IMG/VR virus record: IMGVR_UViG_3300044846_003573
Direction: 5' to 3' (one strand)
Source of the DNA: a virus
Lineage: Duplodnaviria > Caudoviricetes
Length of the DNA stretch: 64,000 nucleotides
The notes beneath the pieces were generated by a model that saw only the letters and a program-made list of their open reading frames with translations, was not told where the DNA came from and did not search any database. This document shows, piece after piece, positions 1,480 through 57,815 of this stretch. The number at the start of each line of letters is the position of its first letter. Within the stretch, counting starts at the first letter, position 1. The position numbers were made by a program, and so were the translations under genes.

Positions 1480-2223
1480 ATGATAATTTATTTAACAACT
1501 AATTTAATTAACGGTAAAAAATATGTTGGACTTGATATGAATAATGATAAGAATTATTTAGGGTCAGGTGTTCATATTAAACGTGCAATAAAAAAATATG
1601 GTAAAGAAAATTTCATAAAAGAAATTTTAGAGGTTTGTGATAATAGACAAGAGTTATTATTATGTGAAAAAAAATGGATAGAAAACTTTAAAGCTGTTGA
1701 ATCTAAAGAATTTTATAATGTTCATATCGGTGGTATTGGTGGTGACATTACACAATATATGGATGAATCTAAAATTATTGAATGGAAACAAAATATTAGT
1801 AATGGTAAAAAGGGTAAAACTAAAGGAAAACCATTAACTGAACAAAATAAAAAAGGTATAAGTGAGTCATTGAGAAAATATTATGATAATGGTGGTGTTG
1901 CCCCATTACAAGGTAAAAAAAGAGATGATGAAACTAAAAGAAAAATAAGTGAGTCTAATAAAGGTAAAGAATTTACTAAAGAACATTTAGAAAATTTAAA
2001 AGAATCATTTAAGGGAAGAGATTATAATGGTGAAAAAAATCCATTCTACGGTAAGGGACATATGATTTCAGGTGAAAAAAACCCAATGTACGGTAAAAGT
2101 TTTTATGATGTATGGGTTGAAAAATATGGTAAAGAAGTTGCCGATATAAAGAAAAAAGAATGGTTAGATAAAAAAAGAAAAAAAAATGGAACTGATTACA
2201 ACAACAATAATGAAAAAATCTGA
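1480..2223 (+). CDS. Free-standing GIY-YIG homing endonuclease with NUMOD3-like repeats
   Basis: N-terminal IIYLTTNLINGKKYVG, YLGSG, FYN; repeats such as DETKRKISESNKGK and GEKNPFYGK/GEKNPMYGK. Confidence 0.88.
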   Translation: MIIYLTTNLINGKKYVGLDMNNDKNYLGSGVHIKRAIKKYGKENFIKEILEVCDNRQELLLCEKKWIENFKAVESKEFYNVHIGGIGGDITQYMDESKIIEWKQNISNGKKGKTKGKPLTEQNKKGISESLRKYYDNGGVAPLQGKKRDDETKRKISESNKGKEFTKEHLENLKESFKGRDYNGEKNPFYGKGHMISGEKNPMYGKSFYDVWVEKYGKEVADIKKKEWLDKKRKKNGTDYNNNNEKI

Positions 2224-9456: not shown

Positions 9457-9939
9457 ATGAAAAAAATAATAAGACTAACAGAATCACAACTTATTTCATT
9501 AGTTAAAAGAGTGATTAATGAAAGTGACCCGAAAGATGGGACTGGTAAAAAACCAAAAGGGTCTGACAGAAGATTATATACTGATGAAAACCCAAAGGAT
9601 ACTGTATCGGTTAAGTTCAGAACAAAAGAAGACATTGTTGATACTTTAAACAAAGAAAGTTTCAAATCTAAATCACACGCTCGTCAGTCTCAGATTATAA
9701 ATCTTATACATCAGAGATTACGAGTTGCTTTGGAAAGAGCAAAAGACCCTGAGGTTAAGAAAAGATTAAGAACTGCCTTTGAATATATTGAGTCCAAAAA
9801 AGAACAATCTAAAAAGAAAACTCAGGAGATGAAAGAAAGTGAATTAACTGAAAGATGTTGGAAAGGATATACTCAAAAAGGAATGAAAACTATGTTTGGT
9901 AAGAGATACCCTAACTGTGTTAAAAATACAAAGAAATGA
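9457..9939 (+). CDS. MKKxxRLTE-leader hypothetical phage protein
   Basis: MKKIIRLTESQLISLVKRVINE; RRLYTDENPKDTVSVKF; C-terminal CWKGY...YPNCVK. Confidence 0.7.
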   Translation: MKKIIRLTESQLISLVKRVINESDPKDGTGKKPKGSDRRLYTDENPKDTVSVKFRTKEDIVDTLNKESFKSKSHARQSQIINLIHQRLRVALERAKDPEVKKRLRTAFEYIESKKEQSKKKTQEMKESELTERCWKGYTQKGMKTMFGKRYPNCVKNTKK

Positions 9940-10367
9940 ACCTACAAGAAACAATAAGACGAATATTAAGGGAAGAACTATATTCTCCATCAGGAGATGA
10001 AATGACACCTAATAAGTTTGTGGTCCATAAATCAAATCCGGTATGGAGAAAGAATATACGACTTAATGGGTTGTTGACATCGGTAGGGGAATGTTATGAG
10101 AATCACGCAATGGATTTATATGGTGAATGGTATACGGAATGTCAACCAGCAATTTTTGCCACAGATTCATTGGATAAAGAAGATATGTTTAGTGATGGTT
10201 ATGATGATGACACATGGTTAATAGATACAGAATGTGCTGGGGTTACTTGGTATAGAGATGCACATTTCGAAGGTGGAGATTATGAACATCATATTGTGAC
10301 ATTTGAGAATATATCATCTAACTGTATAAAATTAATCAATAAAGGAACAGGTAAAAGTATTTGGTAA
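9936..10367 (+). CDS. MNLQE-leader protein, possible ADP-ribosyltransferase-like fold
   Basis: VVHKS...NIRLNGL...PAIFAT resembles the H-x-S/T...I...GL pattern of ART-fold proteins; weak. Confidence 0.4.
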   Translation: MNLQETIRRILREELYSPSGDEMTPNKFVVHKSNPVWRKNIRLNGLLTSVGECYENHAMDLYGEWYTECQPAIFATDSLDKEDMFSDGYDDDTWLIDTECAGVTWYRDAHFEGGDYEHHIVTFENISSNCIKLINKGTGKSIW

Positions 10368-10368
10368 G

Positions 10369-10989
10369 ATGAACCTACAGGAACACATAAGAAGAGTATT
10401 AAGGGAAGATAAAAAGAGTAAATTCATTATGGATATTGTTGATAAACATGGTGTTTATAAGACGGCAGAAATGATGGGTGTAACTATTACCTATTTATAC
10501 AAAATGTCTGATTTAAAAATTGATGAATTTGTTGCTAAAGAACTATTGGCTGAAAATATTGAAAATGGTAATTTACCTGCAAAATATAAAGGATTTGAAA
10601 TTGAAATAAGTAGTGATGATGTGTTTTATTGGGCAAGGCAGTTTAAATCGGGACACTATCCACCTAATGTATTAGAAAAAATATGGGTAATGGCAACACC
10701 TTTTTTCGCAACTGCTGATTATACACCCGTTGAACTTGATTGGTATGGATTAGAAGATGACTCAAAGAAACCTAATGTAGGAATATACGATACAAGTGGT
10801 GATGGTGATTATTTTGTGGAACTTACACATAATACACATAATGGTAATTATTTTTTTAATAGTGTTGATAATTTATTTGATTGGTATAATACGTTTTACT
10901 TACCAGAAGTGTATGAAATAATCTTGGATAGATTCATACCTGAAGTCCAAGAAGACACAGATGAAAGACTTAGAGATAAAAATACTTAA
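10369..10989 (+). CDS. MNLQE-leader protein, unknown function
   Basis: Starts MNLQEHIRRVLRED. Confidence 0.7.
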   Translation: MNLQEHIRRVLREDKKSKFIMDIVDKHGVYKTAEMMGVTITYLYKMSDLKIDEFVAKELLAENIENGNLPAKYKGFEIEISSDDVFYWARQFKSGHYPPNVLEKIWVMATPFFATADYTPVELDWYGLEDDSKKPNVGIYDTSGDGDYFVELTHNTHNGNYFFNSVDNLFDWYNTFYLPEVYEIILDRFIPEVQEDTDERLRDKNT

Positions 10990-11026
10990 GATACGGACTT
11001 AGGACCGTTGTAGTTTAGGCTACATT

Positions 11027-11057
11027 AACCCCATTGAATTCGCTACTCAGTGGGGTT
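11027..11057. terminator. Bidirectional terminator overlapping the stop of the array gene
   Basis: aaccccattga-attcgctac-tcagtggggtt between convergent genes. Confidence 0.65.
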
Positions 11058-11777
11058 TTCATTTAAGACATCTTCCACCACTGGTGAATTACATGTACGT
11101 GATGTGTGTGTTGTAGTTACCTTATGATTTAGGACTTCTTTCACCTCACTGAGAACAATAGTGGGTCTACAATAGGTTTTAGACACCTTATGATTTAATA
11201 CCTTCTCCACCATATTCGGAAACGGCGGTGTATTGAATGATATTGTAGACACCTTATGATTTAATGCCTTTTCCACCAAAACCACTTGTTCCGCATTCGT
11301 CGTTTGTGTTGTAGATACCTTATGATTTAATACATCTTCCACCAAGAAACCTTCGTTACCGATATCGTTTTGCGTTGTGAATACCTTATAATTTAATACC
11401 TCTTCCATCTTCACATTTGCCTTCATGCCCATATAAACAGTTGTAGATACCTTATGATTTAATACCTCTTCCACCTCATCATACTTTTTCTCCGCACACA
11501 ATTCAGTTGTGGGCACCTTATGATTTAATACCTCTTCCACCCAAGAAGCGAGTATTGGTTCAAAATCTTTGGGTTCCAATGAGAAAATGGTAAAAAAACT
11601 ATTAAAGAAATAATATCTCCACCACAAACGACCACTCTTTTCAAATTCAAAATACCAATGCTCCTTTTCTCGGTCAATTAACCATATAGAATCTTTATAT
11701 GGGATTATCTCCACATTACCTAATTCTTTGTATAGTTGTTTGAATACAACCTGTTTTAATCTATCAGTTACTTTCAT
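11043..11777 (-). CDS. Array gene A: about 79-aa conserved N-domain plus 22-aa periodic array (VEEVLNHKVSTT + 10 variable aa)
   Basis: ORF track; N-domain shared with three paralogs. Confidence 0.85.
   Translation of the reverse strand: MKVTDRLKQVVFKQLYKELGNVEIIPYKDSIWLIDREKEHWYFEFEKSGRLWWRYYFFNSFFTIFSLEPKDFEPILASWVEEVLNHKVPTTELCAEKKYDEVEEVLNHKVSTTVYMGMKANVKMEEVLNYKVFTTQNDIGNEGFLVEDVLNHKVSTTQTTNAEQVVLVEKALNHKVSTISFNTPPFPNMVEKVLNHKVSKTYCRPTIVLSEVKEVLNHKVTTTHTSRTCNSPVVEDVLNENPTE
11061..11541 (-). CRISPR. CRISPR-like array A inside CDS: 7 full 36-bp repeats + 1 partial, 7 spacers of 30 bp (structure certain, CRISPR function unproven)
   Basis: Repeats start on + strand at 11110, 11176, 11242, 11308, 11374, 11440, 11506 (period 66); consensus GTTGTRGATACCTTATGATTTAATACCTCTTCCACC. 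Confidence 0.6.
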
Positions 11778-12507
11778 TTTCTTTTTTGTTGTTTAATGCC
11801 TCATCTACCGATTCCGCTCTTCTTGAGATGAATTCTTCCGTTTTGGATACCTTACGATTCAATATATCTTCCACCAAAAAGTTTCCTTCACCTACGTCAC
11901 GGACTGTTTTGGATACCTTAATATCCAATACCTCTTCCATCTCAAGATTACCTCTTGGGTGGAGATACTCCGTTGTAGATACCTTACGATTCAATACCTG
12001 TTCCACCAAATAGTTGTTAGATAAGGTCATGTTTTTTGTTGTGGATACCTTACTATTCAATACCTCTTCCATCATATCATTCGAAGTGAAACTGAATTGC
12101 TGAGTTGTGGATACCTTACTATTCAATACCTCTTCCACCCCTTGCTTAAAACTTCTGAAACGGCTTGCAGTTGTGGATACCTTACTATTCAATACCTCTT
12201 CCACCCCACCATCCATGACATATTGCGTGCTATCTGTTGTGGATACCTTACTATTCAATACCTCTTCCACCCAAGATGAAATAATTGGTTCAAAATCTTT
12301 GGACTCCAAAGAGAAAAAAGAAAAGAAAGATTTGAAATAATCATATCTCCAATATAAACATCCACTTTCAGTTAGTTGGAAATACCAGTATTTTTCTTCT
12401 CTATCAATAAACCAATAACTGTATTGGGTAGGGATAATTTCCACATTACCTAATTCTTTGTATAGTTGTTTGAATATGAGTTGTTTTAATCTATCCGTTA
12501 CTTTCAT
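11764..12507 (-). CDS. Array gene B
   Basis: ORF track; same architecture, repeat variants NSK/NRK. Confidence 0.85.
   Translation of the reverse strand: MKVTDRLKQLIFKQLYKELGNVEIIPTQYSYWFIDREEKYWYFQLTESGCLYWRYDYFKSFFSFFSLESKDFEPIISSWVEEVLNSKVSTTDSTQYVMDGGVEEVLNSKVSTTASRFRSFKQGVEEVLNSKVSTTQQFSFTSNDMMEEVLNSKVSTTKNMTLSNNYLVEQVLNRKVSTTEYLHPRGNLEMEEVLDIKVSKTVRDVGEGNFLVEDILNRKVSKTEEFISRRAESVDEALNNKKENESN
11791..12271 (-). CRISPR. CRISPR-like array B inside CDS: 7 full repeats + 1 partial, 7 spacers of 30 bp
   Basis: Repeats start at 11840, 11906, 11972, 12038, 12104, 12170, 12236; variant GTTGTGGATACCTTACTATTCAATACCTCTTCCACC. Confidence 0.6.
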
Positions 12508-13195
12508 TTTCTTTTTTATTGTTTAATGCCTTTTTCACCCAAACACTATTTAATACTTCTTCCACTGACCTTTCGGAAAACAAGGAATTATTTTTAGTTG
12601 TAGATACCCTACTATCTAATACTTTTTTTACCTTTCTTTTTTGGGCGGCGTCTACTTCAAAAGTTTCGGATACCTTATGATTTAAGACCTCTTCCACCCA
12701 CTTTGCTGTTACAGTAGTTTTCTCTTCAGTTGTGGATACCTTATGATTTAATACCTCTTCCACCAGAGGAAATTCGTCAATTACAAACATTTTTGTTGTG
12801 GATACCTTATGATTTAAGACCTCTTCCACCTGAAGTAAGCGGTGGGCCAATGTATTACCTGTTGTGGATACCTTATGATTTAATACCTCTTCCACCTTAT
12901 TGTCTCGGCGTACGGAAGGTATACGAGTTGTGGATACCTTATGATTTAAGACCTCTTCCACCCAAGAAGATATTATTGGTTCAAACTCACTCTGTTCCAA
13001 AGAGAAAATGCTGAAAAACGATGGGAAGAATGAGTATCTCCAAAATAAACATCCCTCTTTAGACAACTGAAAATACCAATAACAATTTTCCCTATCAATG
13101 AACCATACAGAGTCTTTATATGGGATTATCTCCGCATTACCTAACTCTTTGTATAGGTGTTTGAATATGAGTTGTTTTAGCTTATCTGTAACCAT
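12491..13195 (-). CDS. Array gene C
   Basis: ORF track, start moved to ATG at 13195; TATCTTTG just upstream. Confidence 0.85.
   Translation of the reverse strand: MVTDKLKQLIFKHLYKELGNAEIIPYKDSVWFIDRENCYWYFQLSKEGCLFWRYSFFPSFFSIFSLEQSEFEPIISSWVEEVLNHKVSTTRIPSVRRDNKVEEVLNHKVSTTGNTLAHRLLQVEEVLNHKVSTTKMFVIDEFPLVEEVLNHKVSTTEEKTTVTAKWVEEVLNHKVSETFEVDAAQKRKVKKVLDSRVSTTKNNSLFSERSVEEVLNSVWVKKALNNKKENESNG
12545..12962 (-). CRISPR. CRISPR-like array C inside CDS: 6 full repeats + partial, 6 spacers of 30 bp
   Basis: Repeats start at 12597, 12663, 12729, 12795, 12861, 12927. Confidence 0.6.
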
Positions 13196-13231
13196 AAGCA
13201 CAAAGATACAAAAAAACTTTGAAAATACAAA

Positions 13232-13570
13232 TTAATTTTCAGACGGTAATTTTAACGACCATTGGGAGCTCATTATCTTGTTGGACATTTGACCCTCCAA
13301 ATTCAGTTTTTTCTTAACCCATTGTCCAATAATTCTGGTAGATTGATAACTGTTAAGAGAAAAGAAGGAAGAAATTGCTTCAATTAAACCTTTATAGATA
13401 AAACACAATTCATTATTGGAATGATTACCACCATATTGAATTTGAGCAGACTCATCTTTAGGATATGAAAAATATATACTGGCACCAGTTTTAGTTATAT
13501 TGAAATCCTGACTATCAAGATACCTGAATATTACTTTATCTAATTGTGATTCTGTGATTAAATATTTCAT
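13232..13570 (-). CDS. MKYLITE-family protein
   Basis: MKYLITESQLDKVIFRYLD...SSFFSL...IIGQWV. Confidence 0.75.
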   Translation of the reverse strand: MKYLITESQLDKVIFRYLDSQDFNITKTGASIYFSYPKDESAQIQYGGNHSNNELCFIYKGLIEAISSFFSLNSYQSTRIIGQWVKKKLNLEGQMSNKIMSSQWSLKLPSEN

Positions 13571-13938
13571 GATAATGTTATACTTCTAACTGATTTAACT
13601 TCATAGTCAGGAAAGAACTCATTAAATACATCTGACATAATGAATTTGCCGTGAACTAACCAAATAGGATGAGGAAACGCTGTACCATATACATCGTCAA
13701 AGTTCCTATTATAGTATAAATCACCACTTGGTTTATTATAAACCATTACGGCGTTTTGGTCACTATCAAATAAGTTAAGTCTTAAATCATTTTCAGAATG
13801 TGAATCAACCAAATTTTCAAAATAACGAATCATTTTAGGTTTGAGTCTATTGTATTGTTCCGTATATTCAGAATCTCTCCAAGTTCTTTCAAGTTCGGAT
13901 ATTAAATTATATTGTGACTCGGTAATAATATACTTCAT
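13567..13938 (-). CDS. MKYLITE-leader protein
   Basis: MKYIITESQYNLISE. Confidence 0.7.
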   Translation of the reverse strand: MKYIITESQYNLISELERTWRDSEYTEQYNRLKPKMIRYFENLVDSHSENDLRLNLFDSDQNAVMVYNKPSGDLYYNRNFDDVYGTAFPHPIWLVHGKFIMSDVFNEFFPDYEVKSVRSITLS

Positions 13939-13944
13939 GTAATA

Positions 13945-13964
13945 ATAAATATAATTATATTTAT
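13945..13964. promoter_or_regulatory. Perfect 20-bp palindrome with back-to-back TATTTAT motifs between divergent genes
   Basis: ataaatataattatatttat between ATGs at 13938(-) and 13971(+). Confidence 0.6.
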
Positions 13965-13970
13965 AATATT

Positions 13971-14294
13971 ATGAACCTACAAGAGAATATAAAAAAAGTA
14001 TTAAGGGAAGAAACAGATTTTTCACCACAGTTCAAAAGAAGACTGAATAGATTTAAATCGTTTGTATGGGATAATAATGTAACTAATTATCCATGTGATT
14101 TTGAAAACTTTGAAGCGTTCATGCGTGGTATACAACATGAAATTATGGACATGATTACAGATGGTTCTGATACCGATGGCCCGTTGTCTGATTGGTTAAC
14201 ATATAAAGATGGTGTTACGTATGTAGAAAACTACATGAGGGATGACTTAGAAAAGTTTTATAATAAGCAATGTGTTGATGTCTTATACGTATAA
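13971..14294 (+). CDS. MNLQE-leader protein
   Basis: MNLQENIKKVLREE. Confidence 0.7.
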   Translation: MNLQENIKKVLREETDFSPQFKRRLNRFKSFVWDNNVTNYPCDFENFEAFMRGIQHEIMDMITDGSDTDGPLSDWLTYKDGVTYVENYMRDDLEKFYNKQCVDVLYV

Positions 14295-14639
14295 ATCAAG
14301 AAATTGTTCAATTGATATTCCAAGACCTGAGATACCAAAAAAGTTCATAAAGTCGGATTCATCCCAAGTATCACATCCGTTATTAATAATCCAAGATTGA
14401 CCTGTGGCATAATTCATCTGATAAAGTAAATCATAACTATTATCTAATTTTATCAGATACATCGGACCATAATTGTCCATATTAAATCTTCTTTGCATAC
14501 TATTATAACTAATACACTCATCAAAAATTATCATTACATCAGTTAAATCTGGGTCAAACTCAACACGACCTGTCAGGTCAATATTAAACTTGTCTTTAAT
14601 GAATGTTTTTAATTTAGATTCGGTGATAAGATATTTCAT
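14283..14639 (-). CDS. MKYLITE-leader protein
   Basis: MKYLITESKL. Confidence 0.7.
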   Translation of the reverse strand: MKYLITESKLKTFIKDKFNIDLTGRVEFDPDLTDVMIIFDECISYNSMQRRFNMDNYGPMYLIKLDNSYDLLYQMNYATGQSWIINNGCDTWDESDFMNFFGISGLGISIEQFLDLYV

Positions 14640-14655
14640 TATATATAAATATTAG

Positions 14656-15066
14656 TTAACAATTTCCTGTATTATAAACCTCAATATTGTGAACACTAAT
14701 TAGACCGCCACCGAACTGATATAAAGCCTTAGAAATAACATCTCTATACATACTTCTTGTACCTTCCTCATAGATATACCTTCCCACATTTGCAGGAGCT
14801 GGCTTAGGTATGTAGACGACCAAATTCATAGAGTCACGAGTGGGGATGATATTATAACTACAATACATCAAGACGGTTGAGATATCATTTTCAAGTATAG
14901 TTTTTGTTAGAAAGATAATATCTTCTCTTGTTCCTTTAAGACCAATCTCATCAATAATATCTTCAGGTTCCTTATCAGTCATTTTACACAGAGTACGCAT
15001 ACCAAATTTCTCTAATAAGGGTTTAAGAGTTTTGTTATATTGATTCTCAGTGATTAAGTATTTCAT
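14656..15066 (-). CDS. MKYLITE-leader protein
   Basis: MKYLITENQY. Confidence 0.7.
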   Translation of the reverse strand: MKYLITENQYNKTLKPLLEKFGMRTLCKMTDKEPEDIIDEIGLKGTREDIIFLTKTILENDISTVLMYCSYNIIPTRDSMNLVVYIPKPAPANVGRYIYEEGTRSMYRDVISKALYQFGGGLISVHNIEVYNTGNC

Positions 15067-15078
15067 TATATGTAAATA

Positions 15079-15411
15079 TTAGTTATAGTGAACCTTCAAA
15101 ACTTCGGACTTGCTAAAGACAACCCATTGTGAGTAACTGACTTCCATTTGTAGGGTATTTCCAACCCAATTACCAATAATCTTTTTAGAGCGGACTTCAT
15201 CTAAAGAAAATAATACAGAGATGTCCTCAATTAAATTTAAGTTTATCTGACAAACACCATTTTTTTTATTATATCTAATTTGGGCATGTTCATCTTCTTC
15301 TGAATTAACAAAGAATATATTACTACTTGTTTCAATCTGAATAAAGTTCTGGCTATCCAAATATCTAAAGATTACTCTGTCTAATTGTGATTCGGTGATA
15401 AGGTATTTCAT
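15079..15411 (-). CDS. MKYLITE-family protein (WVxNTLQM subfamily)
   Basis: MKYLITESQLDRVIFRYLD...IGNWVGNTLQMEVSYS. Confidence 0.75.
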   Translation of the reverse strand: MKYLITESQLDRVIFRYLDSQNFIQIETSSNIFFVNSEEDEHAQIRYNKKNGVCQINLNLIEDISVLFSLDEVRSKKIIGNWVGNTLQMEVSYSQWVVFSKSEVLKVHYN

Positions 15412-15414
15412 ATA

Positions 15415-15735
15415 TTAATAATCAAAAAACATAACATCAACATCAAATGCTTTACTAAACCAATCAGAAATGAATTTACCTGATTGCTCTTTATCAAGTG
15501 GATACATGGATGAAAACTTATCTAAAAAAGATTCATCAATATATAATCTACCATCGCTGTGGTCAAACTCCATTAAAATAAAAAAATCAGGGCCTCTTTC
15601 AGGGCTATATATATTAATGAAATCACTATCTGATGTTCTATCATAATCTAATAATTTATTTAACTCAGATATCATTAAATTATTTATTACCGATTTGACT
15701 TTATCTAATTGTGATTCGGTGATGAGGTATTTCAT
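15415..15735 (-). CDS. MKYLITE-leader protein
   Basis: Start moved to ATG at 15735. Confidence 0.7.
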   Translation of the reverse strand: MKYLITESQLDKVKSVINNLMISELNKLLDYDRTSDSDFINIYSPERGPDFFILMEFDHSDGRLYIDESFLDKFSSMYPLDKEQSGKFISDWFSKAFDVDVMFFDY

Positions 15736-15768
15736 ATAAAATATAAATATAATCATATTTATAATAAT

Positions 15769-16098
15769 ATGAACTTAAAAGAATCTATAAAAAGAATACT
15801 GAGGGAAGAACTATCGGCGAGAATTAAAAGAAGACTTTCTAATGATGAAATGGAAAATGAGTTTCTTGAATCTTTTGAAGGCGCTTATCGTCTTACAAAA
15901 GACAGAAAGGTTTTAAGTTCACATTTTTTAGATGAGTTAGTCTACACAACAATAACCTTTATGATGGATGGGGTACATTGGAGATTTGTTAGTACATTAC
16001 CTGAAGATGAATTTTGGTATGATGATATACACCAAGGATTAGAAAATCATTATAGAAAAAGAATTACACGGATGTATAATGAAAGAAAAGGTTTTTAA
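15769..16098 (+). CDS. MNLQE-leader protein
   Basis: MNLKESIKRILREE. Confidence 0.7.
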   Translation: MNLKESIKRILREELSARIKRRLSNDEMENEFLESFEGAYRLTKDRKVLSSHFLDELVYTTITFMMDGVHWRFVSTLPEDEFWYDDIHQGLENHYRKRITRMYNERKGF

Positions 16099-16101
16099 AG
16101 A

Positions 16102-16380
16102 TTAATTAGAGTTTAAGAATTTGAGTAACGCTCTAATATATTCGGAACGTTTATTATAGAATTCAGTATCATCATCATATTGAAAAAACTCTTCACCTCT
16201 ATGTCTATCAACGAACTTTTCAATTAATTCATAAGCGTAGTCATCTCTGTCGGCGGAATCTTCAAAATCTTCTTCATCCATAATGTAGTTATAATCATCC
16301 CTAAGTGATTCCAATTCATCCATTGTAAACCTCCTAAGTAAAAATGCTTCTAACTGTGATTCTGTAATTAAGTATTTCAT
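16102..16380 (-). CDS. MKYLITE-leader acidic protein
   Basis: MKYLITESQLE; D/E-rich. Confidence 0.7.
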   Translation of the reverse strand: MKYLITESQLEAFLLRRFTMDELESLRDDYNYIMDEEDFEDSADRDDYAYELIEKFVDRHRGEEFFQYDDDTEFYNKRSEYIRALLKFLNSN

Positions 16381-16733
16381 TATTCGTTAACCATTAATCT
16401 GTAATCATATGGACCATCCCAAACCGTACTATCACTAATACCCAAAGTATTATTAACCCATGCTTTGATTATATCCAAACAATCCGATTTATCAATGGAG
16501 AAGAAGGTAGATAATTTATCAGTCAAATCAGAATTTACAAACACCCAATTCCTAACTTCACCAAAAGCGTTATTAGTATAAACACTAATCTGTGATTCCC
16601 TATCTGACTCACTGTTTAAGAAATATATATAATTGCTGAATTTCTTCTTGTTGTCATACATCACAAAGTCCTGAATATCAAGATACTTAAAGATTACTTT
16701 CTCTAATTTTGATTCGGTGATAAGGTATTTCAT
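16380..16733 (-). CDS. MKYLITE-family protein
   Basis: MKYLITESKLEKVIFKYLD...FFSID...WVNNTL. Confidence 0.75.
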   Translation of the reverse strand: MKYLITESKLEKVIFKYLDIQDFVMYDNKKKFSNYIYFLNSESDRESQISVYTNNAFGEVRNWVFVNSDLTDKLSTFFSIDKSDCLDIIKAWVNNTLGISDSTVWDGPYDYRLMVNE

Positions 16734-17068
16734 TATATATAAATATTCTTAGGTATTTTCAACCAAGACTGGGTCATCAAACCAGCCTTGGTGGTATTTG
16801 TAACTTTCATTTGTAGGGTATTCCCAACCCACCTACCAATAGCCGATTCAGAATCAGATTTGTCCAAAGAAAATAACGATGAGATGTTCTTGATTAATTC
16901 GGGACTTATTACGCAACCAAAATTACCATTTTTGATTTGAGCATATTCATCATCTTCAGAGTTAACGAAGTATACTAAAAGACCTATTTTAATTTGAATA
17001 AAATCTTGATGGTTCAAGTAAATAAAGATTGCTCTATCTAATTGTGATTCGGTGATAAGGTATTTCAT
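16733..17068 (-). CDS. MKYLITE-family protein (WVxNTLQM subfamily)
   Basis: ...AIGRWVGNTLQMKVTNT + 10 aa + LKIP. Confidence 0.75.
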   Translation of the reverse strand: MKYLITESQLDRAIFIYLNHQDFIQIKIGLLVYFVNSEDDEYAQIKNGNFGCVISPELIKNISSLFSLDKSDSESAIGRWVGNTLQMKVTNTTKAGLMTQSWLKIPKNIYI

Positions 17069-17080
17069 TATATATAAGTA

Positions 17081-17395
17081 TTAGTTAGGTGCTCTCAATC
17101 GTTCAGTGGGTAGGGTGTAAGAAATCTTTATTTGGAGAGTATCACTAACCCAACTACCAATAACTTCTTTTGAATCTAAATAATGTAAAGAAAATAAAGA
17201 AGAAATCTCATCAATTAATTTAGTGGATATATAACACCATTCATTAGTTATACTAGATTTAATTTGAGCGTATTCGTCACCTTCTGAATTAATAAAGTAT
17301 ACACCACCATTTTTCTCAATCTGAATAAAATCCTGATTATCCAAGTACTTAAAGATTACCTGATTTAATTTAGATTCTGTTATAAGGTATTTCAT
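17081..17395 (-). CDS. MKYLITE-family protein
   Basis: Start moved to ATG at 17395; ...VIGSWVSDTLQIKISYT. Confidence 0.75.
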   Translation of the reverse strand: MKYLITESKLNQVIFKYLDNQDFIQIEKNGGVYFINSEGDEYAQIKSSITNEWCYISTKLIDEISSLFSLHYLDSKEVIGSWVSDTLQIKISYTLPTERLRAPN

Positions 17396-17502
17396 TATAT
17401 ATAAATACAAAGATACACATAAAACTGAACAATACATATTGGGTTAATAATTTAATAAGAATATGATAATATGGTTTGAGGTTGTTTTTAATACTTATTA
17501 TT

Positions 17503-18210
17503 ATGGATTTATCAAAGTTTTTAACCATAGTAATCCCTTGTAAGAACGAGGGCAAGATAATAGAACAAACGTTGTCCTTATTAAACTTTCAAAAGGGAAT
17601 ACAAGATGTTAGAGTTATTGTTTGTGATTCATCGGATGATGATTATACATCCTATTCTTTGGAAAATAGGAGAACAGATTATTTTAATCTACAGATTATT
17701 TCAGGAGGACTTCCGTCTGTTGCAAGAAATAAGGGGGCTGAGAATGTGGAAACACCTTATGTTTTATTTTTGGATGCTGACATATTCTTATTGGATTTCA
17801 ACATATTAAACAATTGTATATGGGAGTTCTTATTACATAATACAGATTTGATTACATGTAAGGTAAGGTCAACGACAGGTGAGTATAATAGTATATTCAG
17901 ATTGTTTGATACAATACAAAAGGTATTTAAACCAATCACGCCATTTTGTCTTGGTGGGTTCATGATGGTAAAGAAAGAAGTATATGATACAATCGGTGGG
18001 TTTGATGAAAACGCAAGAGTTGCCGAGGATTATCTATTCTCCAAACAAGTTAAACCAAGCAAGTTTTATATCATGAATACGACGGTATTCACAAGTCCAA
18101 GAAGGTTCAAACAGAAAGGGGTGTGGTATATGTTAAAACTTATGGTTAGTTCATTCTTCAACAGAAACAATAAAAATCATTTTGAGGATGATAAAGGATA
18201 CTGGGAATGA
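17503..18210 (+). CDS. Glycosyltransferase family 2
   Basis: TIVIPCKNEG, VIVCDSSDD, ARNKGA, YVLFLDAD, GGFDE...AED. Confidence 0.85.
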   Translation: MDLSKFLTIVIPCKNEGKIIEQTLSLLNFQKGIQDVRVIVCDSSDDDYTSYSLENRRTDYFNLQIISGGLPSVARNKGAENVETPYVLFLDADIFLLDFNILNNCIWEFLLHNTDLITCKVRSTTGEYNSIFRLFDTIQKVFKPITPFCLGGFMMVKKEVYDTIGGFDENARVAEDYLFSKQVKPSKFYIMNTTVFTSPRRFKQKGVWYMLKLMVSSFFNRNNKNHFEDDKGYWE

Positions 18211-18923
18211 ATAATTGGAAAACAATAATCATGAGTGATTTACACTTAGGAGCAAGACAATCACAGACAGATAAGATAATAAGTTTCTTGGATAATAACA
18301 CAACAGAAAAACTAATACTGAACGGTGATATTATAGATGGTTGGGCTCTTAAAGGTAATGGTAAATGGACGAAGGATTGTACCAAGATATTCAGGAAGTT
18401 CATGAAGATGTCTGAGAAGAATACAAAGGTAATTTATATAAGAGGAAACCACGATGACTTCCTAAAAGATTTTATTCCATTTAAATTAAACAACATTAGG
18501 ATTGTAAGAAAGTATATACATAATGGTATTGACGGAAGAAAGTATTTTTGTTTTCACGGGGATGTATTGGATTTCGTTATAATGGAAGCGAGGTGGTTAG
18601 CAGTAATCGGTGGATGGTCATATGATATTGTCATTAAGTTTAATACTCTATATAACAAAATAAGAAAGTGGTTTAACTTACCATATCATTCATTGGCAAA
18701 CACAATAAAACAATCAGTAAAAGGGGCAATTAACTTTGTATCTGATTTTGAACAAAACGCGAAAGGTCTAACAAAACAAAAGGGATATGATGTTGCGGTG
18801 TGTGGACATATTCATCACCCGAAGATAGAGAATGACTATATGAACTCAGGAGACTTTTGTGAGAACTCTACATGTCTTGTAGAAGATTATAACGGGGAGT
18901 GGAAGATTATTACTATTAGTTAG
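18207..18923 (+). CDS. Calcineurin-like metallophosphoesterase, UDP-2,3-diacylglucosamine hydrolase (LpxH)-like
   Basis: SDLHLG, LNGDIIDGW, RGNHDD, FHGD, CGHIHHP, YMNSGDF. Confidence 0.85.
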   Translation: MNNWKTIIMSDLHLGARQSQTDKIISFLDNNTTEKLILNGDIIDGWALKGNGKWTKDCTKIFRKFMKMSEKNTKVIYIRGNHDDFLKDFIPFKLNNIRIVRKYIHNGIDGRKYFCFHGDVLDFVIMEARWLAVIGGWSYDIVIKFNTLYNKIRKWFNLPYHSLANTIKQSVKGAINFVSDFEQNAKGLTKQKGYDVAVCGHIHHPKIENDYMNSGDFCENSTCLVEDYNGEWKIITIS

Positions 18924-19245
18924 GTATTTTAAACAAATTGTTCACATCGTGAAAGACCAAACGGGTATAAGTAACCCTCATTTGTAGAGTATTTTCAACC
19001 CATCTACCGATAACTTCCTTAGAATCATATATGTCCAAAGAAAAGAAAGAAGAAATTTCGTAAATTAATCCATGGCGTATATAACACCAACCATCGTTTC
19101 TATCATATCTGATTTGGGCATATTTATCATCTTCCGAATTAACAAAGTATATTGCGTTTCCTCTTTTAATCTGAATAAAGTTCTTAATATCCAAATATCT
19201 AAAGATTACTCTGTCTAATTGTGATTCTGTGATAAGATATTTCAT
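18916..19245 (-). CDS. MKYLITE-family protein (WVxNTLQM subfamily)
   Basis: ...VIGRWVENTLQMRVTYT + 10 aa + FKIPN. Confidence 0.75.
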   Translation of the reverse strand: MKYLITESQLDRVIFRYLDIKNFIQIKRGNAIYFVNSEDDKYAQIRYDRNDGWCYIRHGLIYEISSFFSLDIYDSKEVIGRWVENTLQMRVTYTRLVFHDVNNLFKIPN

Positions 19246-19275
19246 TACATATAAATATCATAAAGATAATAACTA

Positions 19276-20070
19276 TTATTGATTTAAGACCTGTTCCATC
19301 ACATAGTTCATAACAGACATTTCTACATCCGTTGTACATTCCTTATGATTTAATACCTCTTCCACCCCTCTTGTGAAGGGTCCAGAATATGCTTCCAATG
19401 TTGATACCTTATGATTTAATACCTCTTCTACCTCAATTTTTCCAACGTAATCAAGTGAATCGGTTGTAGATACCTTATGATTTAATACTTCTTCCACCAA
19501 TGAATGTTCGGGGTATTTGAGAATGGTAGTTGTAGACACCTTAACATTATGACTTAATACATCTTCCACCCGTGTTCGGATATGAGCATTGTGAGTATTA
19601 GTTGTGGATACCTTACTATTCAATACCTCTTCCACCTTCCAAGGAACACGAACTTTAACATCGCACGTTGTGGATACCTTATGATTTAATACATCTTCCA
19701 CCATCATGCTTTCAACACCGCTACCTGTCACGGTTGTAGATACCTTATGATTTAAGACCTCTTCCACCTTGTCCGTTGTAATTGGAAGTGGAATGAAGGT
19801 TGTGGATACCTTATGATTTAAGACCTCTTCCACCCAAGAAGATAGAACAGGACAAAAATCATCCAAACTCATGGAGAATATTTGAAAAAACGAATTAAAA
19901 AAATCGTATCTCCACCATAAAGTACCTGACTCATCAAGTTCAAAGTACCAGTATTTATTATCCCTATTAATAAACCATATAGACCCATTATAAGGAATAA
20001 TCTCACAATCACCCAACTCTTTATATAGGTGTTTAAAAATAAGTTGTTTTAATCTATCTGTAATAACCAT
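19276..20070 (-). CDS. Array gene D
   Basis: ORF track; same N-domain and 22-aa array; TATATTTG at 20075-20082 upstream. Confidence 0.85.
   Translation of the reverse strand: MVITDRLKQLIFKHLYKELGDCEIIPYNGSIWFINRDNKYWYFELDESGTLWWRYDFFNSFFQIFSMSLDDFCPVLSSWVEEVLNHKVSTTFIPLPITTDKVEEVLNHKVSTTVTGSGVESMMVEDVLNHKVSTTCDVKVRVPWKVEEVLNSKVSTTNTHNAHIRTRVEDVLSHNVKVSTTTILKYPEHSLVEEVLNHKVSTTDSLDYVGKIEVEEVLNHKVSTLEAYSGPFTRGVEEVLNHKECTTDVEMSVMNYVMEQVLNQ
19281..19834 (-). CRISPR. CRISPR-like array D inside CDS: 8 full repeats (one with a 6-bp insertion) + partial, 8 spacers of 30 bp
   Basis: Repeats start at 19331, 19397, 19463, 19529 (42 bp), 19601, 19667, 19733, 19799. Confidence 0.6.
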
Positions 20071-20885
20071 AGAGCAAATATAGTAAGAAATTATGAACTA
20101 AACAAACTCATTCCCCCATTCCACTATCGTGTCGTTCCATTCCCCTTCGGGTCATTACACTAATGGGTTCATTCATTTGTTTACTTCCTAATTTCATCAG
20201 GTCAAGAACTTCCTAATTTCCCCTATTGTATGAATCTATAATTAACGTACAACACTAATCTATAATAATCCCCCATAATGAAAGACACATACTATGAAGG
20301 GACATAACATATTACTGTTAATGGTATTGTACCCCATCGGGATAATGAAATACCCTAAAGGGTATATAAGATGATATTAGTATACCTGTTAGGGTATAAA
20401 ATATATGGTGGAATGTGAAAGGGACAATGTTCTTTATAGGGAACATAACCCTACAGGGTTATCCCTTATATAACACATTATGTCCCACTTTTTACCACCA
20501 CTATAATTGTCCATATCATGTGTCTATATGGTAAGGGGAAATCTTAAAAACCCCCTTGAAGACACTATAAAATACACTTTTCGTTGAAGGATTTAAACAA
20601 CTAAAGTCTGTCCACGCCACTTTATTGTTACATCCTATTTTTAGCTGGAAAATGTATATAGTTAAAAAAACCCTTCTCACACTATCAGGAGGACCACTTT
20701 TTTCACTTTTCATATAACCAAAAACCCCTCTCACATATACGTCAGTGGTAAAAAGTGGGAACATTTACCTATGGACAATATACATAATATACACTATATT
20801 TATAGTTGTTAATATGTCTAAAACCCGTCAAGGGGATTATCCCTTATCTGACGCTCCCCTGACATTTTGACAAAATCAAGAAAAA

Positions 20886-49827: not shown

Positions 49828-51213
49828 ATGAAAAAAGAAATTTTATCAGAAATTAATAGATTTAGAGAAATTAGTGGTTTGCCGTTGTTGATTGAAGGTA
49901 AAATACCTTCATCTTTTATTGACGATTTATCTAAACTTTTTAATAAATCATCAGACGAACTTTTTACGTCACTTGAAAAAAAAGAAATACCTTCATTAGA
50001 AAAAACACTCAAAACCGCTTTAGGTGATGATAGCGTAATTTTCGCTAAAAACTTACAAAAATTAAAAGCCGGAACTCTGTCACCAACATTAGAAGATAAA
50101 TTGTTAGCGTCATTAATAAGAAGTAATGATGATAGAATTAAAAATTTGGTAGAAACTACTTTTATAAAATCAAATCCTGATTTAAATCAAATCATTAATA
50201 GATTTACAAAAAGGGCTGATGGTTCATATTCTGAAATTCAACCAGGGTTAACTTATGATAAATATATTAGTAGAATGTCTCCTGAAAAATATACGGAATA
50301 TGTGAAATTACAAAATCAGTTAATTGACGCAACTGATTTAGGAGTACAAATGAAAAAATATCTAAAAGAAAGATTAGCATCTGAATTAACTTCACTTAAA
50401 ACTAAATCAATTACAACTCCTTCGGTTGAAAATATGTATAAATTATACGAACTACAAGCCAAAAAATTAGGTAAAAAACCAATTCCTATGTCCGATTTAA
50501 AACTAATTGAGGATGATATAATTAATGCTGGTGTAACACAAAAAGAAATGGTTAACTATATGATTGAGTTAAGTGGTGATGAAAAATCATTCTTAGAAAG
50601 AATGAAAATTTTTAGACAAGGTAAGAAAGAACTTGAGGGTATGGCCGGTGACTCTGTTGACGAATTAAAGAAAGGTTTATCAGGTTGGAAGAAAGGTGCG
50701 TTAGTAGTATTAGGACTTGCATTATTAGGTGGTGGTGTTTGGTATAACTGGGATAGGCTTAGATATGGTTCAAACAAAGATGTATGGAAAGAAACTTATA
50801 AAGAATCATTTAGTGATTTACCTAAAAATTTACAAAATTTTATTATTGCAAATTATGCCGGTTCTGCAGGTAGTGACCCAAACATTAAAAAAAATATCAA
50901 AAGTTTATTATTTGATAATGATGTTTTAACTATTACATTTATGGATAATACAAAAAATATTATTAAAAAAGTAACACAAGGAGAGAATGAATATTGGTCA
51001 GTAGTTGAAGGTGAACCTAAAAAAACTGAGGAAGATGAAATAATACCAACAACATATCCTAGAGATATTAATACTTCAACCGACACTAAAATTATAGATA
51101 AAATTAAAACTGATTATGGGTATGACATATCCGATTTTACTTCTGTTAAAGTTATTAGTGATAGTAAAGTTCAATTAGTTTTAAATGGTGAAACATATGA
51201 AATGTCATATTGA
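49828..51213 (+). CDS. Large hypothetical protein with one TM segment
   Basis: MKKEILSEINRFREISG; ALVVLGLALLGGGVWY. Confidence 0.65.
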   Translation: MKKEILSEINRFREISGLPLLIEGKIPSSFIDDLSKLFNKSSDELFTSLEKKEIPSLEKTLKTALGDDSVIFAKNLQKLKAGTLSPTLEDKLLASLIRSNDDRIKNLVETTFIKSNPDLNQIINRFTKRADGSYSEIQPGLTYDKYISRMSPEKYTEYVKLQNQLIDATDLGVQMKKYLKERLASELTSLKTKSITTPSVENMYKLYELQAKKLGKKPIPMSDLKLIEDDIINAGVTQKEMVNYMIELSGDEKSFLERMKIFRQGKKELEGMAGDSVDELKKGLSGWKKGALVVLGLALLGGGVWYNWDRLRYGSNKDVWKETYKESFSDLPKNLQNFIIANYAGSAGSDPNIKKNIKSLLFDNDVLTITFMDNTKNIIKKVTQGENEYWSVVEGEPKKTEEDEIIPTTYPRDINTSTDTKIIDKIKTDYGYDISDFTSVKVISDSKVQLVLNGETYEMSY

Positions 51214-53105
51214 TGGAATATATGAATAAAAATACTCTTTTAATTGAAAAAGAATTACCTAAAAAAGGTGATGGTACAAAAGAATTACCTAAAAAAGGTG
51301 ATGGTACAAAAGAATTGCCTAAAAAAGGTGATAGTACAAAAGAATTACCTAAAAAAGGTGATAGTACAAAAGAATTACCTAAAAAGGATACTCCTGAAAA
51401 AAGTGGTAAGGTTGATGTAACATTAGACCACCCAAAAGACCAAGCTCAAGGTGATGCTTTTAGAGCTTGGATGTCAGTAAATCGCCCGGATTTTAAATGT
51501 GGTAGTGACAAACTTGAAAATAAAAAAGGTATGTCATTTAAAAATAATTGTATAAAACTGGCTTGGAAGGATAACAAAGGAGATTTTTTAAAATTATCAC
51601 CACAACAACAAACTGAATTATCTAAAAAAGTTGAATTTCCAATTAATACTATTGATAGGTCAAATAAATTCAGAAAATGGTTAAAAAGTTTTCGTGTTGG
51701 TTTTTTCAAACAAAAAAATATTAGAGATATTATTTCAAATATCCAAGACGATGCTGATTCTATTAAAATCGCTTGGGAAGAATATGGTAATGAGTTTATT
51801 CAATTTTTACTTAATTCACCTAACTCAGCTTTACAAGCGTTAGGTAAACAAATTAAAGATGAAAACGAAAATTGGTTAAAAACTGGTGAAGGTCTTGATG
51901 TTGGGTTTGAAAAACAAATTGAATCAGAAAAAAGAAAATGCGAGCCTTGGACTTTAGGTAATTTATTTGAAAAAAAATATAAAAGAGAAGGAGTTGATAA
52001 ATTAAATCAAAAGGCTAAAGAATTTATCGAATGGTCAGGTGAAAAAGGTTGGTATGGTAATTTAGTACCATCTGATTTTTGTGGTTTTGATGCCAATGAT
52101 ATTGACTGGGATAATGATGTTTGGATGGATGAAGATAGTGGAGAACATCAAATTTACCAGCATCCAATTGTTAGATTATTGTCGTTACATAAAGTTTGGA
52201 TGAGAGACGAACTTACTCGTGTTGATAGGAAGAGTGATTTATTTACTAAGTTTTTAAAGGATAGTGGTGAAGAAGTTACACCATATGTTTCAGGTGGTAG
52301 AAGTGAAGAAGGACGAACTAAAAACGTTAGACTTTCAGATACACCTGCGGACTCAAGTGCTGAAGTAATTTTATCGGCAGGTGCTAACAGAAATTTATGT
52401 GTTAATTTAAGAAATGCTTTAAAATCATCTTCAGATAGAAGTGAAACAGTTCAAAGGGCTATTCAAATGTGTAATTCAAAAAATTCAAATTGGTTAAAAA
52501 CGGATTTAGAAAGTAGAGTGAAAACTAAATTAAAAGTATTTCAGGAAGGTAAAATGATTAAAGAAACTATTCAAAACAAATTAAAATCAAAGAAGAATGA
52601 AAAATCTTTGAGTACCCTATCAGAACAGTTTAACAAACAAAATTATAGAAAATTCTTCGATACGTTAACTAAATTTAGAAATAATAATATCAATGAAGCA
52701 ACCAATGCAGAATTTGAAAAATCATTTGACGTTGTTTTTCAAGGAAAAGAATCTGAATTTAAAAACAGAGCAATAGAATATATCTTAGGCAAATTGGAAG
52801 TTTCACCATCGTCTGAACTTGGTAAAAGTATTAAATCAGAATTAGATAAAGTATCTGCTAAAGATATGTTTAGAAATGAATATGATGTCCCTGAGGCAAT
52901 ATCAAAAGCAATTGAAACATCTTCACAAACAAATAATGGTGAACAAACGGGATTAAAAGGTATTGTATCCCAATCAATTAAATTTGACGATAAACAAATC
53001 AAACAAGGTGTTAGACAACATCTTCACGATTATATCGAAGGCGTTAAAGATGATATTAAGTCTTTAGAACAAAAATTAAAAAGTTCAATCATAAAAGACA
53101 TCTAA
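51210..53105 (+). CDS. Large hypothetical protein with N-terminal KELPKKGD(G/S)T repeats
   Basis: ORF track. Confidence 0.65.
   Translation: MMEYMNKNTLLIEKELPKKGDGTKELPKKGDGTKELPKKGDSTKELPKKGDSTKELPKKDTPEKSGKVDVTLDHPKDQAQGDAFRAWMSVNRPDFKCGSDKLENKKGMSFKNNCIKLAWKDNKGDFLKLSPQQQTELSKKVEFPINTIDRSNKFRKWLKSFRVGFFKQKNIRDIISNIQDDADSIKIAWEEYGNEFIQFLLNSPNSALQALGKQIKDENENWLKTGEGLDVGFEKQIESEKRKCEPWTLGNLFEKKYKREGVDKLNQKAKEFIEWSGEKGWYGNLVPSDFCGFDANDIDWDNDVWMDEDSGEHQIYQHPIVRLLSLHKVWMRDELTRVDRKSDLFTKFLKDSGEEVTPYVSGGRSEEGRTKNVRLSDTPADSSAEVILSAGANRNLCVNLRNALKSSSDRSETVQRAIQMCNSKNSNWLKTDLESRVKTKLKVFQEGKMIKETIQNKLKSKKNEKSLSTLSEQFNKQNYRKFFDTLTKFRNNNINEATNAEFEKSFDVVFQGKESEFKNRAIEYILGKLEVSPSSELGKSIKSELDKVSAKDMFRNEYDVPEAISKAIETSSQTNNGEQTGLKGIVSQSIKFDDKQIKQGVRQHLHDYIEGVKDDIKSLEQKLKSSIIKDI
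51248..51387 (+). repeat. 30-bp in-frame tandem repeat, 4 full copies + partial
   Basis: aaaagaattacctaaaaaaggtgat(g/a)gtac. Confidence 0.9.
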
Positions 53106-54132: not shown

Positions 54133-54209
54133 GCCTTCGTAGCTCAGTAGGATAGAGCAACAGATTTCTAATCTGTGGGTCAGGGGTTCGAATCCCTTCG
54201 GGGGTACCA
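54133..54209 (+). tRNA. tRNA-Arg (anticodon UCU) with encoded CCA
   Basis: GCCTTCG/CGGGGGT acceptor, GCTC-GAGC D arm, ACAGA-TTTCTAA-TCTGT anticodon arm, GGTTCGAATCC T arm, ACCA end. Confidence 0.92.
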
Positions 54210-57420: not shown

Positions 57421-57815
57421 TGGTGGAGATGCGGGGATTCGAACCCCGGTCCAAATATGTCGACCATAAAACACTACACGTTTAGGTCATTGTTTTTCTA
57501 AACAATCCGAAACTTCACAATTCCCTTATTTTATAGTGGTTCGGTTTACTGAGAACTAATCCTCCACTTTGTTCCTTTTCGGATAGAAACCACACCACGG
57601 TACAAGCTTCTGTTGCAAGGTTATATGCTCACCGACCCCGTTGTATACTAATCTTAGATTAGGCTACAGTTACTTCTTCAGTACGGATTAAACCGAGTGT
57701 AGAAAGTTTTGCAATTGTGTTGCCGTTTGTGTTTTAAACCAGTTTTACAGGGTTAGTTTAGCCCCGACGTGCGTTTTATGACAGATTCATACCTGTCAAA
57801 TCCAAAAACATCCCC
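57421..57815 (-). ncRNA. ssrA: tmRNA
   Basis: 5' GGGGATGTTTTTGGATTTGACAGG and 3' GGACCGGGGTTCGAATCCCCGCATCTCCACCA form an alanine-type tRNA-like domain; internal tag ORF; TATCTTTG at 57838-57845 upstream. Confidence 0.9.

Follow-up and report, generated by a model that had tools for sequence, protein, structure and literature searches.

Translated arrays of CRISPR-like repeats and variable cassettes in a hypervariable family of phage proteins

Four genes of the virus record IMGVR_UViG_3300044846_003573 (Duplodnaviria; Caudoviricetes) contain, within their reading frames, arrays that resemble CRISPR (short palindromic repeats that are clustered and regularly interspaced). They lie in the 64,000-nucleotide stretch of that record analysed here, referred to as the window. 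Each gene encodes a small N-terminal domain (N domain) followed by 36-bp repeats that alternate with 30-bp spacers, also called cassettes. These arrays are translated, their units turn over as wholes and with a polarity, the cassettes are foreign in composition and are shuffled by recombination, and the repeat resembles that of type VI-B CRISPR systems. The favoured explanation, given a little short of an even chance, is that units are inserted at the DNA level in a manner like CRISPR adaptation and then shuffled by recombination, yielding a hypervariable protein that displays peptides. A full-text search of the literature found no description of such translated arrays; one pipeline paper discards 'translated CRISPRs' as artefacts (PMC10392669).

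The four open reading frames (ORFs) are on the minus strand and encode 244, 247, 236 and 264 amino acids (aa), in each case an N domain of about 79 aa and then units of 66 bp, or 22 codons. Genes C, B and A form one operon in which neighbours overlap by 14-17 nucleotides (nt). Gene C (12491-13195), the first of the three, has an ATG at 13195, and a GTG at 13201 is also open. Its N domain (12963-13195) is followed by array C (12597-12962), with 6 detected repeats, 5 spacers of 30 bp and a decayed tail; counted from the domain side, the repeats have 1, 0, 1, 0, 3 and 9 mismatches. Gene B (11764-12507) starts inside the tail of gene C, with a 17-nt overlap, and consists of an N domain (12272-12507) and an array of 7 repeats (11840-12271; mismatches 3, 3, 3, 4, 4, 6 and 5), the four newest of which have an array-specific variant, TTGAATAGT, in common. 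Gene A (11043-11777; N domain 11542-11777) is the last of the operon. Its array (11110-11541) holds 7 repeats with 2, 1, 3, 2, 5, 5 and 6 mismatches, and the array end (11043-11109) is a last cassette and a partial repeat running into the stop codon. Gene D (19276-20070), a separate copy 6 kb from the operon, has its N domain at 19835-20070 and an array (19331-19834) of 7 detected repeats plus one 42-nt repeat (VEDVLSHNVKVSTT), in which a 6-bp insertion keeps the frame.

The initial annotation had described three tandem genes and an array D with this layout, and ORFs and gaps are as it described them; the single 6-bp in-frame repeat indel that it mentioned is the 42-nt copy of gene D. Its total of 28 repeats and 28 spacers is correct to within one or two; the exact figure varies with the treatment of decayed copies at the array ends. 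The 36-bp repeat (GGTGGAAGAGGTATTAAATCATAAGGTATCCACAAC, coding strand) occurs in 18 copies at ≤3 mismatches on the minus strand (0 expected). At ≤8 mismatches there are 26 copies, and the gaps between repeats are always exactly 30 bp.

The arrays are defined in DNA as 36 + 30 bp and not as 12 + 10 codons. For a non-redundant set of 69 units, taken from the window and 17 related loci, per-position entropy is at most 1.1 bit (mostly below 0.5) at positions 1-36 and 1.8-2.0 bit at positions 37-66. The boundary between repeat and insert is sharp to a single nucleotide and out of phase with the codons. The repeat opens on the third base of the last cassette codon. This base is a G in all 69 units, the codon's other two bases being free, so that only NNG codons (K, L, R, M, E, Q) occur for the last cassette residue. 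The repeat's final Thr codon, in turn, has a fully variable third base. At the protein level, cassette residues 1-9 reach 4.0-4.2 of 4.32 bits and show no hydrophobic pattern. Lengths hardly vary: spacers are exactly 30 bp in 178 of 187 cases, and the protein gap is 10 aa in 417 of 428. One lake metagenome contig has an additional 30-nt cassette between two repeats. Synonymous sites in the repeat are conserved as well. In diverged pairs with N domains 60-79% identical in DNA, codons for the same residue are identical in 85% of cases in the repeat versus 59% in the N domain.

Selection acts on the cassettes as peptides. In-frame stops are found in 0 of the 69 non-redundant spacers, whereas shuffles average 33 and gave at least 20 in all 2000 trials; the shuffled rate (33/69 = 0.48) agrees with the chance of about 0.5 per random spacer estimated by hand in the initial annotation. 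Where several phages have a cassette in common, its differences comprise 15 synonymous and 12 nonsynonymous codons, with 24% synonymous expected at random (p 4e-4), and 16 of the 28 changed bases are at third positions. Counted once per cluster, the ratio is 11:10 (p 0.005). The N domain, with a ratio of 59:56, behaves like the cassettes. Such purifying selection on the cassette peptides implies that the arrays are translated. The third-position bias likewise implies that cassettes, once present, are kept as peptides, since a function at the RNA level only would not produce it. Because one antisense frame is open through the repeat (LWIPYDLIPLPP), antisense ORFs of 75-94 aa appear on the plus strand (12730-13014, 12107-12340 and 11786-12013). 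Antisense coding was rejected, as 22 of the 69 spacers have stops in that frame (36 expected; depleted, not absent).

The composition of the cassettes is not that of the phage. Guanine plus cytosine (GC) makes up 42% of the spacers, compared with 30% of the phage and 32% of stop-free random 30-mers from the window. By codon position the GC fractions are.47/.41/.39 in spacers and.41/.31/.20 in ordinary genes of the window. Dinucleotide ratios differ too, for example 0.96 versus 0.52 (spacers versus phage) for GC and 1.05 versus 1.34 for CC/GG. TA is depleted to 0.59 in the spacers, which makes stops rarer in three other frames as well. A is about equal to T in the spacers, and G to C. Amino-acid usage of the cassettes correlates better with random translation of such DNA (r 0.86) than with the phage proteome (r 0.49). 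Set against a genome GC at third codon positions (GC3) of 0.20, this composition speaks against long neutral residence. It is as expected of sequence brought in from outside, in one orientation or the other. No GC gradient of the spacers along the arrays was detected, and sub-strings common to different spacers, in either orientation, were no more numerous than in shuffles.

The cassettes are gained and lost as whole units. Distinct spacers compared in pairs have a bimodal identity, at most 18/30 or at least 24/30 with none between. In orthologous arrays with flanks 85-97% identical, some cassettes are common and others different, by whole cassettes. The comparison across related phages proposed in the initial annotation thus found orthologues that are not collinear, where an ordinary old repeat protein had been expected to show collinear arrays with point changes only. 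Turnover is also polar. The best protein matches include 119 complete arrays, which form 788 array pairs with at least one common cassette; the same first, domain-adjacent cassette occurs in 7% of these pairs and the same last full cassette in 48%. Nested patterns are seen in the gene C group (...3 1, 4 3 1, 5 4 3 1; 12 8 1, 14 12 8 1, 59 14 12 8 1). Repeats decay toward the far end (1.8 versus 5.4 mismatches, rho 0.61, p 4e-18), and each array has lineage-specific repeat variants common to its newest units. Duplication of a cassette within an array was seen in 2 of the 119 arrays. The features of polarised growth, namely a variable end by the domain, a conserved far end and a degenerate terminal repeat, are all present, blurred by recombination.

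Recombination shows itself in several arrangements. The cassette CDVKVRVPWK, for example, recurs in the arrays of more than one paralogue and not at a constant position, and tails of the gene D type occur joined to N domains of type C. The repertoire is large. A Chao1 estimate from a small sample gives about 680 cassette families, and searching at E≤1e-3 yields at least 975 members of the array protein family in lake metagenomes, with lengths that step by 22 aa. The 36-bp repeats interrupt the Logan contigs (k=31).

The N domain belongs to a larger family of phage proteins. At least 11 neighbouring paralogues of about 110 aa, beginning MKYLITESQ(L/Y), share homology with the N domain and first repeat taken together. 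Their cluster occupies 13232-17437 on the minus strand, with a few plus-strand genes among them, and another member (18916-19245, minus strand) lies directly downstream of gene D. In BLASTP the N domain matches these paralogues at E 5e-8, and the alignment extends through WVENTLQMRVTYT / WVEEVLNHKVSTT, so that the homology includes the C-terminal element WV..L..KV.T. Relatives of the array genes elsewhere have a leader, MKYIITENQYRLINEE, before the domain, as the MKYLITESQ paralogues do; the window's four array genes are without such a leader. In the AlphaFold model the first repeat falls within the last helix (residues 69-85) of an alpha/beta domain predicted with moderate confidence, at a predicted local distance difference test score (pLDDT) of 70-87. 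The array part (residues 87-244) scores 26-40; its modelled shape matches leucine-rich repeat (LRR) solenoids, including the 22-residue SDS22, with Z up to 8.7, which at such pLDDT is only a hint. A conserved hydrophobic pattern through the whole unit, as a solenoid would have, was not found. With the N domain alone as query, 340 representatives of distant relatives were recovered at E≤1e-3; many of them have decayed arrays, which keep the 22-residue period and a V-x-x-V-L-N motif. Neither Pfam nor PHROGs has a family for the array proteins or their neighbours, and a protein atlas search gave no usable match. A V-E-E is encoded in each repeat of the four arrays A-D and agrees with prohead-protease sites of the [ILV]-x-E type; cleavage there would split the arrays into 22-residue peptides.

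The closest counterparts of the repeat are found in Bacteroidota. The CRISPR array of Flavobacterium columnare ATCC 49512 has a 36-bp repeat, ending in GGTATCTACAAC, and 30-bp spacers (PMC5395568, Table 4). The II-C and VI-B repeats of F. columnare are both 36 bp with a common leader-distal GTTGT end, and the VI-B array acquires its spacers via the II-C machinery (PMC8092290). In F. covae, a 36/30 array with a degenerate far end lies directly behind a gene whose end carries an RNxxxH (HEPN) motif, a feature expected of cas13b. Four repeat types came out of 400 Bacteroidota genomes scanned for 36/30 arrays with GKTG...ACAAC ends. What the initial annotation had stated of such arrays in this phylum holds in both papers and in the genomes. 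Over the 27 positions outside the ends forced by the search pattern, the common phage repeat variant is identical to the F. covae VI-B repeat at 17 and to a second Bacteroidota 36/30 repeat at 17, and these two bacterial repeats likewise agree with each other at 17. Shuffles reach 17/27 in 0.055% of cases for the common variant and in 0.8% for the consensus variant. The similarity to VI-B repeats is on the coding strand, with the ACAAC end away from the variable side, as in real arrays.

Phage arrays and the type VI-B/II-C arrays of Flavobacterium columnare/covae have in common a 36-bp repeat (23-25 of 36 positions identical), unique 30-bp spacers, a variable end and a conserved one with decayed repeats, change by whole units, and spacers of foreign composition. 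They differ in that the phage array lies inside an ORF, in frame, with spacers that are stop-free and selected as peptides, and in that its first repeat doubles as the code for a domain's last helix. Moreover, no cas genes were found on the phage and, in narrow searches, no protospacers, the inner hairpin of VI-B is not kept, and their cassettes move between arrays more than CRISPR spacers usually do. The hairpin of the phage repeat is weak (5-bp outer stem, z -1.3 to -2.2), with an inner stem only in the GTC variant, and it is not of the Cas13b type. By eye, the repeat variants show no covariation or compensatory changes. An Rfam search of 10900-20200 at E≤10 gave no CRISPR-DR family, the matches being at chance level and including a partial GOLLD in array A (E 2.2).

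The favoured explanation, insertion of units in DNA followed by shuffling, would work as follows. Each gene would encode a small alpha/beta domain, with the first repeat supplying its last helix, and then units of cassette and repeat. The array would have begun at the 3' end of the gene, at a repeat-like sequence, and new units would enter mainly beside the domain, through a ruler-type integrase whose action copies the first repeat in the way of Cas1-Cas2 during adaptation. Such an integrase would most plausibly come from a Bacteroidota host with a type II-C/VI-B system of 36-bp repeats and 30-bp spacers. Since 36 + 30 bp make 66 bp, or 22 codons, each insertion extends the protein by 22 residues in frame. 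Selection would purge insertions with stops or harmful peptides, and homologous recombination in the repeats would delete units and move cassettes between arrays and between phages. The product would be a constant scaffold motif, VEEVLNHKVSTT, combined with near-random 10-residue segments in many combinations, each individually kept by selection. We infer that the array protein probably serves the phage or its host in their conflict, by offering a surface for binding or as a decoy. A narrower proposal, on balance doubtful, is that a Cas1-Cas2-type integrase, either of the host or an unrecognised one of the phage, writes captured 30-bp DNA into a phage ORF, each acquisition being a new 10-residue module; selection and recombination would make of these modules a heritable, combinatorial library of peptides, and CRISPR adaptation would thereby be reused for protein diversification and not for guide storage. 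That the inserting agent is specifically the Cas1-Cas2 of the host is rather unlikely.

Two known processes help to place such a mechanism. Off-target 'neo-CRISPR' loci are made by Cas1-Cas2 at pseudo-repeats; they are rare laboratory events whose function is not known. A similar event would explain the start of an array at the repeat-like 3' end of a gene with duplication of adjacent sequence, but the phage arrays are conserved in at least 975 homologues. Diversity-generating retroelements likewise achieve targeted diversification of a phage protein. Here, in contrast, no reverse transcriptase or template repeat was found, and cassettes are replaced whole, not altered by adenine-specific point changes.

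A number of findings weigh against insertion by an adaptation-like route. Of the 52 window ORFs of at least 150 aa, 30 were searched without any cas or reverse transcriptase gene being found, in keeping with the initial annotation, which had seen none in the window. Cas1, Cas2 and RVT_1 were not found in five related phage records (37-82% complete), nor was any bacterial array with a phage-type repeat found in one genome each of 185,579 species. Protospacers were sought with equally little success. None rose above shuffled controls in the window and 3 related phage records (629 kb), none was found in GenBank phages, where only chance matches came up at E≤10, and none in 400 Bacteroidota genomes. 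Four spacers searched as exact 24-mers in IMG/VR matched only the arrays themselves, and two searched against metagenome contigs gave nothing or only an array; these searches were narrow, the large collections being queried with exact words of six spacers only. Two findings complicate the idea of acquisition further. One is the coding origin of the first repeat: being homologous to the C-terminus of array-less paralogues, and the native C-terminal helix of a phage protein family, it implies that the array was not simply captured from a host. The other is that recombination moves cassettes. An identical cassette can sit in different arrays and positions, the cassettes beyond a conserved one vary too, and for two variable sites all four combinations are present, so that recombination alone accounts for part of the pattern. 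Many distant relatives, finally, have decayed arrays with irregular spacing and only partly conserved repeat DNA. The suggestion in the initial annotation that spacer acquisition diversifies a protein is accordingly borne out in part. The unit defined in DNA, the open frame, selection on the peptides, domain-proximal turnover of whole units and the VI-B-like repeat speak for it; the lack of cas genes and, in limited searches, of protospacers speaks against it.

One cassette alone has a match outside the arrays. In the last cassette of array A (11080-11109), 20-24 nt are the antisense of rpmF (bL32, TGELHVR site). The site is identical in the three Bacteroidota genomes concerned (L060, L067, L071), which belong to one order. 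The exact run of 24 nt was considered as a protospacer and judged to be due to chance. There is no fit at the other 9 of the spacer's first 10 bases, its own reading deviates from the conserved HRAH of bL32, the match continues into the repeat, and about 0.05-0.4 such runs are expected in the search space.

The array genes might instead encode an unusual but otherwise ordinary tandem-repeat protein, with the 12-residue motif as a solenoid element and the 10-residue segments as surface loops. Its repeats would be homogenised by short-tract gene conversion and an old pool of cassettes only shuffled, with no insertion machinery. This main rival is somewhat unlikely, and much of the evidence accords with it: the first repeat as native C-terminal helix of a phage domain family, the movement of cassettes among arrays and positions with all four combinations of two variable sites, V-x-x-V-L-N kept at the protein level in distant relatives despite irregular spacing, the LRR-like modelled shape (Z up to 8.7), purifying selection on the cassette peptides, and the fact that neither cas genes nor protospacers were found. 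A precedent exists in the gp38 adhesins of T-even phages, in which conserved glycine-rich motifs flank shuffled hypervariable segments. These adhesins, and repeat proteins of the LRR or variable lymphocyte receptor type, resemble the array proteins in having short conserved motifs around hypervariable segments and shuffling by recombination, and the low-confidence model is LRR-like. They have no sequence relation to them, however, and here the lengths are fixed in nucleotides, the boundary is off the codon phase, and the cassettes are random-like and foreign. A tandem-repeat protein offers no source of new cassettes, and their GC3 of.39 versus.20 and foreign dinucleotide signature are hard to square with long residence. 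Nor does it readily account for an invariant third-position G in an otherwise free codon, for ten contiguous positions near maximal entropy without a hydrophobic pattern, or for an array pLDDT below 40. Unequal crossing-over should produce duplications, yet these are nearly absent (2/119), and crossovers alone predict the tightest linkage for the cassettes adjacent to the N domain, which are in fact the least linked.

Two further explanations, both improbable, concern the transcript and the mature product. If the transcript were a pre-crRNA, or a repeat mimic of the Racr or mini-array kind that loads or blocks the host's Cas13b or Cas9, translation would be secondary. The likeness to VI-B repeats in the sense orientation, the 36/30 geometry and the conserved synonymous sites of the repeat would suit such a role, and contigs from RNA libraries span N domain, repeat and cassette, although these may derive from DNA. 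Phage-borne, host-like repeats with no cas genes nearby are known as cas-less CRISPR arrays, mini-arrays and repeat mimics (PMC4916379, PMC11656645, PMC10651486). Those are non-coding RNAs, whereas here the arrays are coding, under selection at the protein level, and present as 4 arrays of 6-8 units per genome. The strict absence of stops and the third-position bias reflect selection on the peptide. A weak hairpin unlike the VI-B inner stem, with no compensatory changes, no CRISPR-DR match in Rfam and no target for any spacer searched also count against an RNA role. Alternatively, the N domain could be the leader of a peptide precursor, from which a protease cutting at the repeat frees peptides of about 22 residues to be packaged or secreted. 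Precursors of the cyanobactin type have conserved flanks and hypervariable cores that are alike at the nucleotide level. The V-E-E of every repeat, with its fit to the [ILV]-x-E prohead-protease type, the predicted disorder of the array part, and the N-terminal MKYIITE...LINEE leader that relatives have in common with neighbouring paralogues are consistent with a precursor. Neither a protease nor a modifying enzyme is associated with these genes, however, the window's four genes are without the leader, the cores are not enriched in residues used by known peptide-modifying pathways, and the origin of the cassettes is again left unexplained. An RNA-level role and peptide release at V-E-E are compatible additions to insertion of units at the DNA level rather than alternatives to it.

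The signals around the array genes are consistent with expression in Bacteroidota. A TAnnTTTG motif (TATCTTTG, 13201-13208, minus strand) lies 5 nt upstream of the gene C ATG, and another (TATATTTG, 20075-20082, minus strand) 4 nt upstream of the gene D ATG. By sequence, both are putative promoter elements of the Bacteroidota type. They suggest Bacteroidota-type promoters and nearly leaderless mRNAs, which fits a Bacteroidota host. A 7-bp GC-rich stem, AACCCCA/TGGGGTT, surrounds the stop codon of gene A (11028-11057, minus strand) and may be the terminator of the operon; having no T run, it was missed by a consensus terminator scan.

The neighbourhood is rich in small paralogous genes. A second family, beginning MNLQE.I+R.LREE, is present on the plus strand at 9936-10367, 10369-10989, 13971-14294 and 15769-16098; its genes are interleaved with those of the MKYLITESQ family and have no Pfam or PHROG match. 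In two lake runs, numerous contig joints between paralogous small genes were found across 10400-20200, with skips and back-jumps of 0.2-5 kb. These joints suggest that the small paralogues vary in number and order among strains that occur together. A gene for a SegE-like GIY-YIG homing endonuclease is found at 1480-2223 (plus strand) of the window, and a distant relative has a SegE-like GIY-YIG gene (L037, 13901-14614, minus strand) about 7 kb from its arrays. A plain tandem repeat of 30 bp in 4.6 copies, 97% identical (51248-51385), lies inside the ORF at 51210-53105 and is unrelated to the arrays.

The window itself, with a GC content of 30%, has the appearance of part of a jumbo phage. Its gene content includes a tRNA, a transfer-messenger RNA (tmRNA)-like gene, a ClpB-like ATPase and a glutamine-synthetase-like gene. 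ARAGORN places a tRNA-Arg(TCT) at 54133-54209 (plus strand) and a tmRNA gene with the tag AKLSTLGLIRTEEVTVA at 57421-57815 (minus strand). Domains of polyphosphate kinase 2 (E 3e-70) and of a phage lysozyme (E 6e-19) are fused in one ORF at 35467-37233 (plus strand). The sequence is present in lake-water metagenomes. The nearest IMG/VR contigs, of up to 240 kb and an estimated completeness of 82%, have flanks 85-97% identical to those of the window, and no relative of the array locus was found among GenBank phages. A related record, G005, is labelled 'provirus', a status not adopted here since neither a GC step nor a host flank was found in it.

In phage genomes, this family will systematically give rise to 'CRISPR arrays' in the output of array finders. 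If insertion at the DNA level is true, it would be a new route of protein diversification, neither point hypermutation, as in diversity-generating retroelements, nor assembly from silent copies. A reading frame would instead take up 30-bp modules of foreign or random sequence, which would mean a wider use of the CRISPR adaptation machinery or of a look-alike. It also becomes testable whether the adaptation complexes of a host act on the DNA of a phage that infects it. Even on the conservative reading, these genes represent a large, previously undescribed family of hypervariable phage proteins that follows DNA-level rules seen in no known repeat protein.

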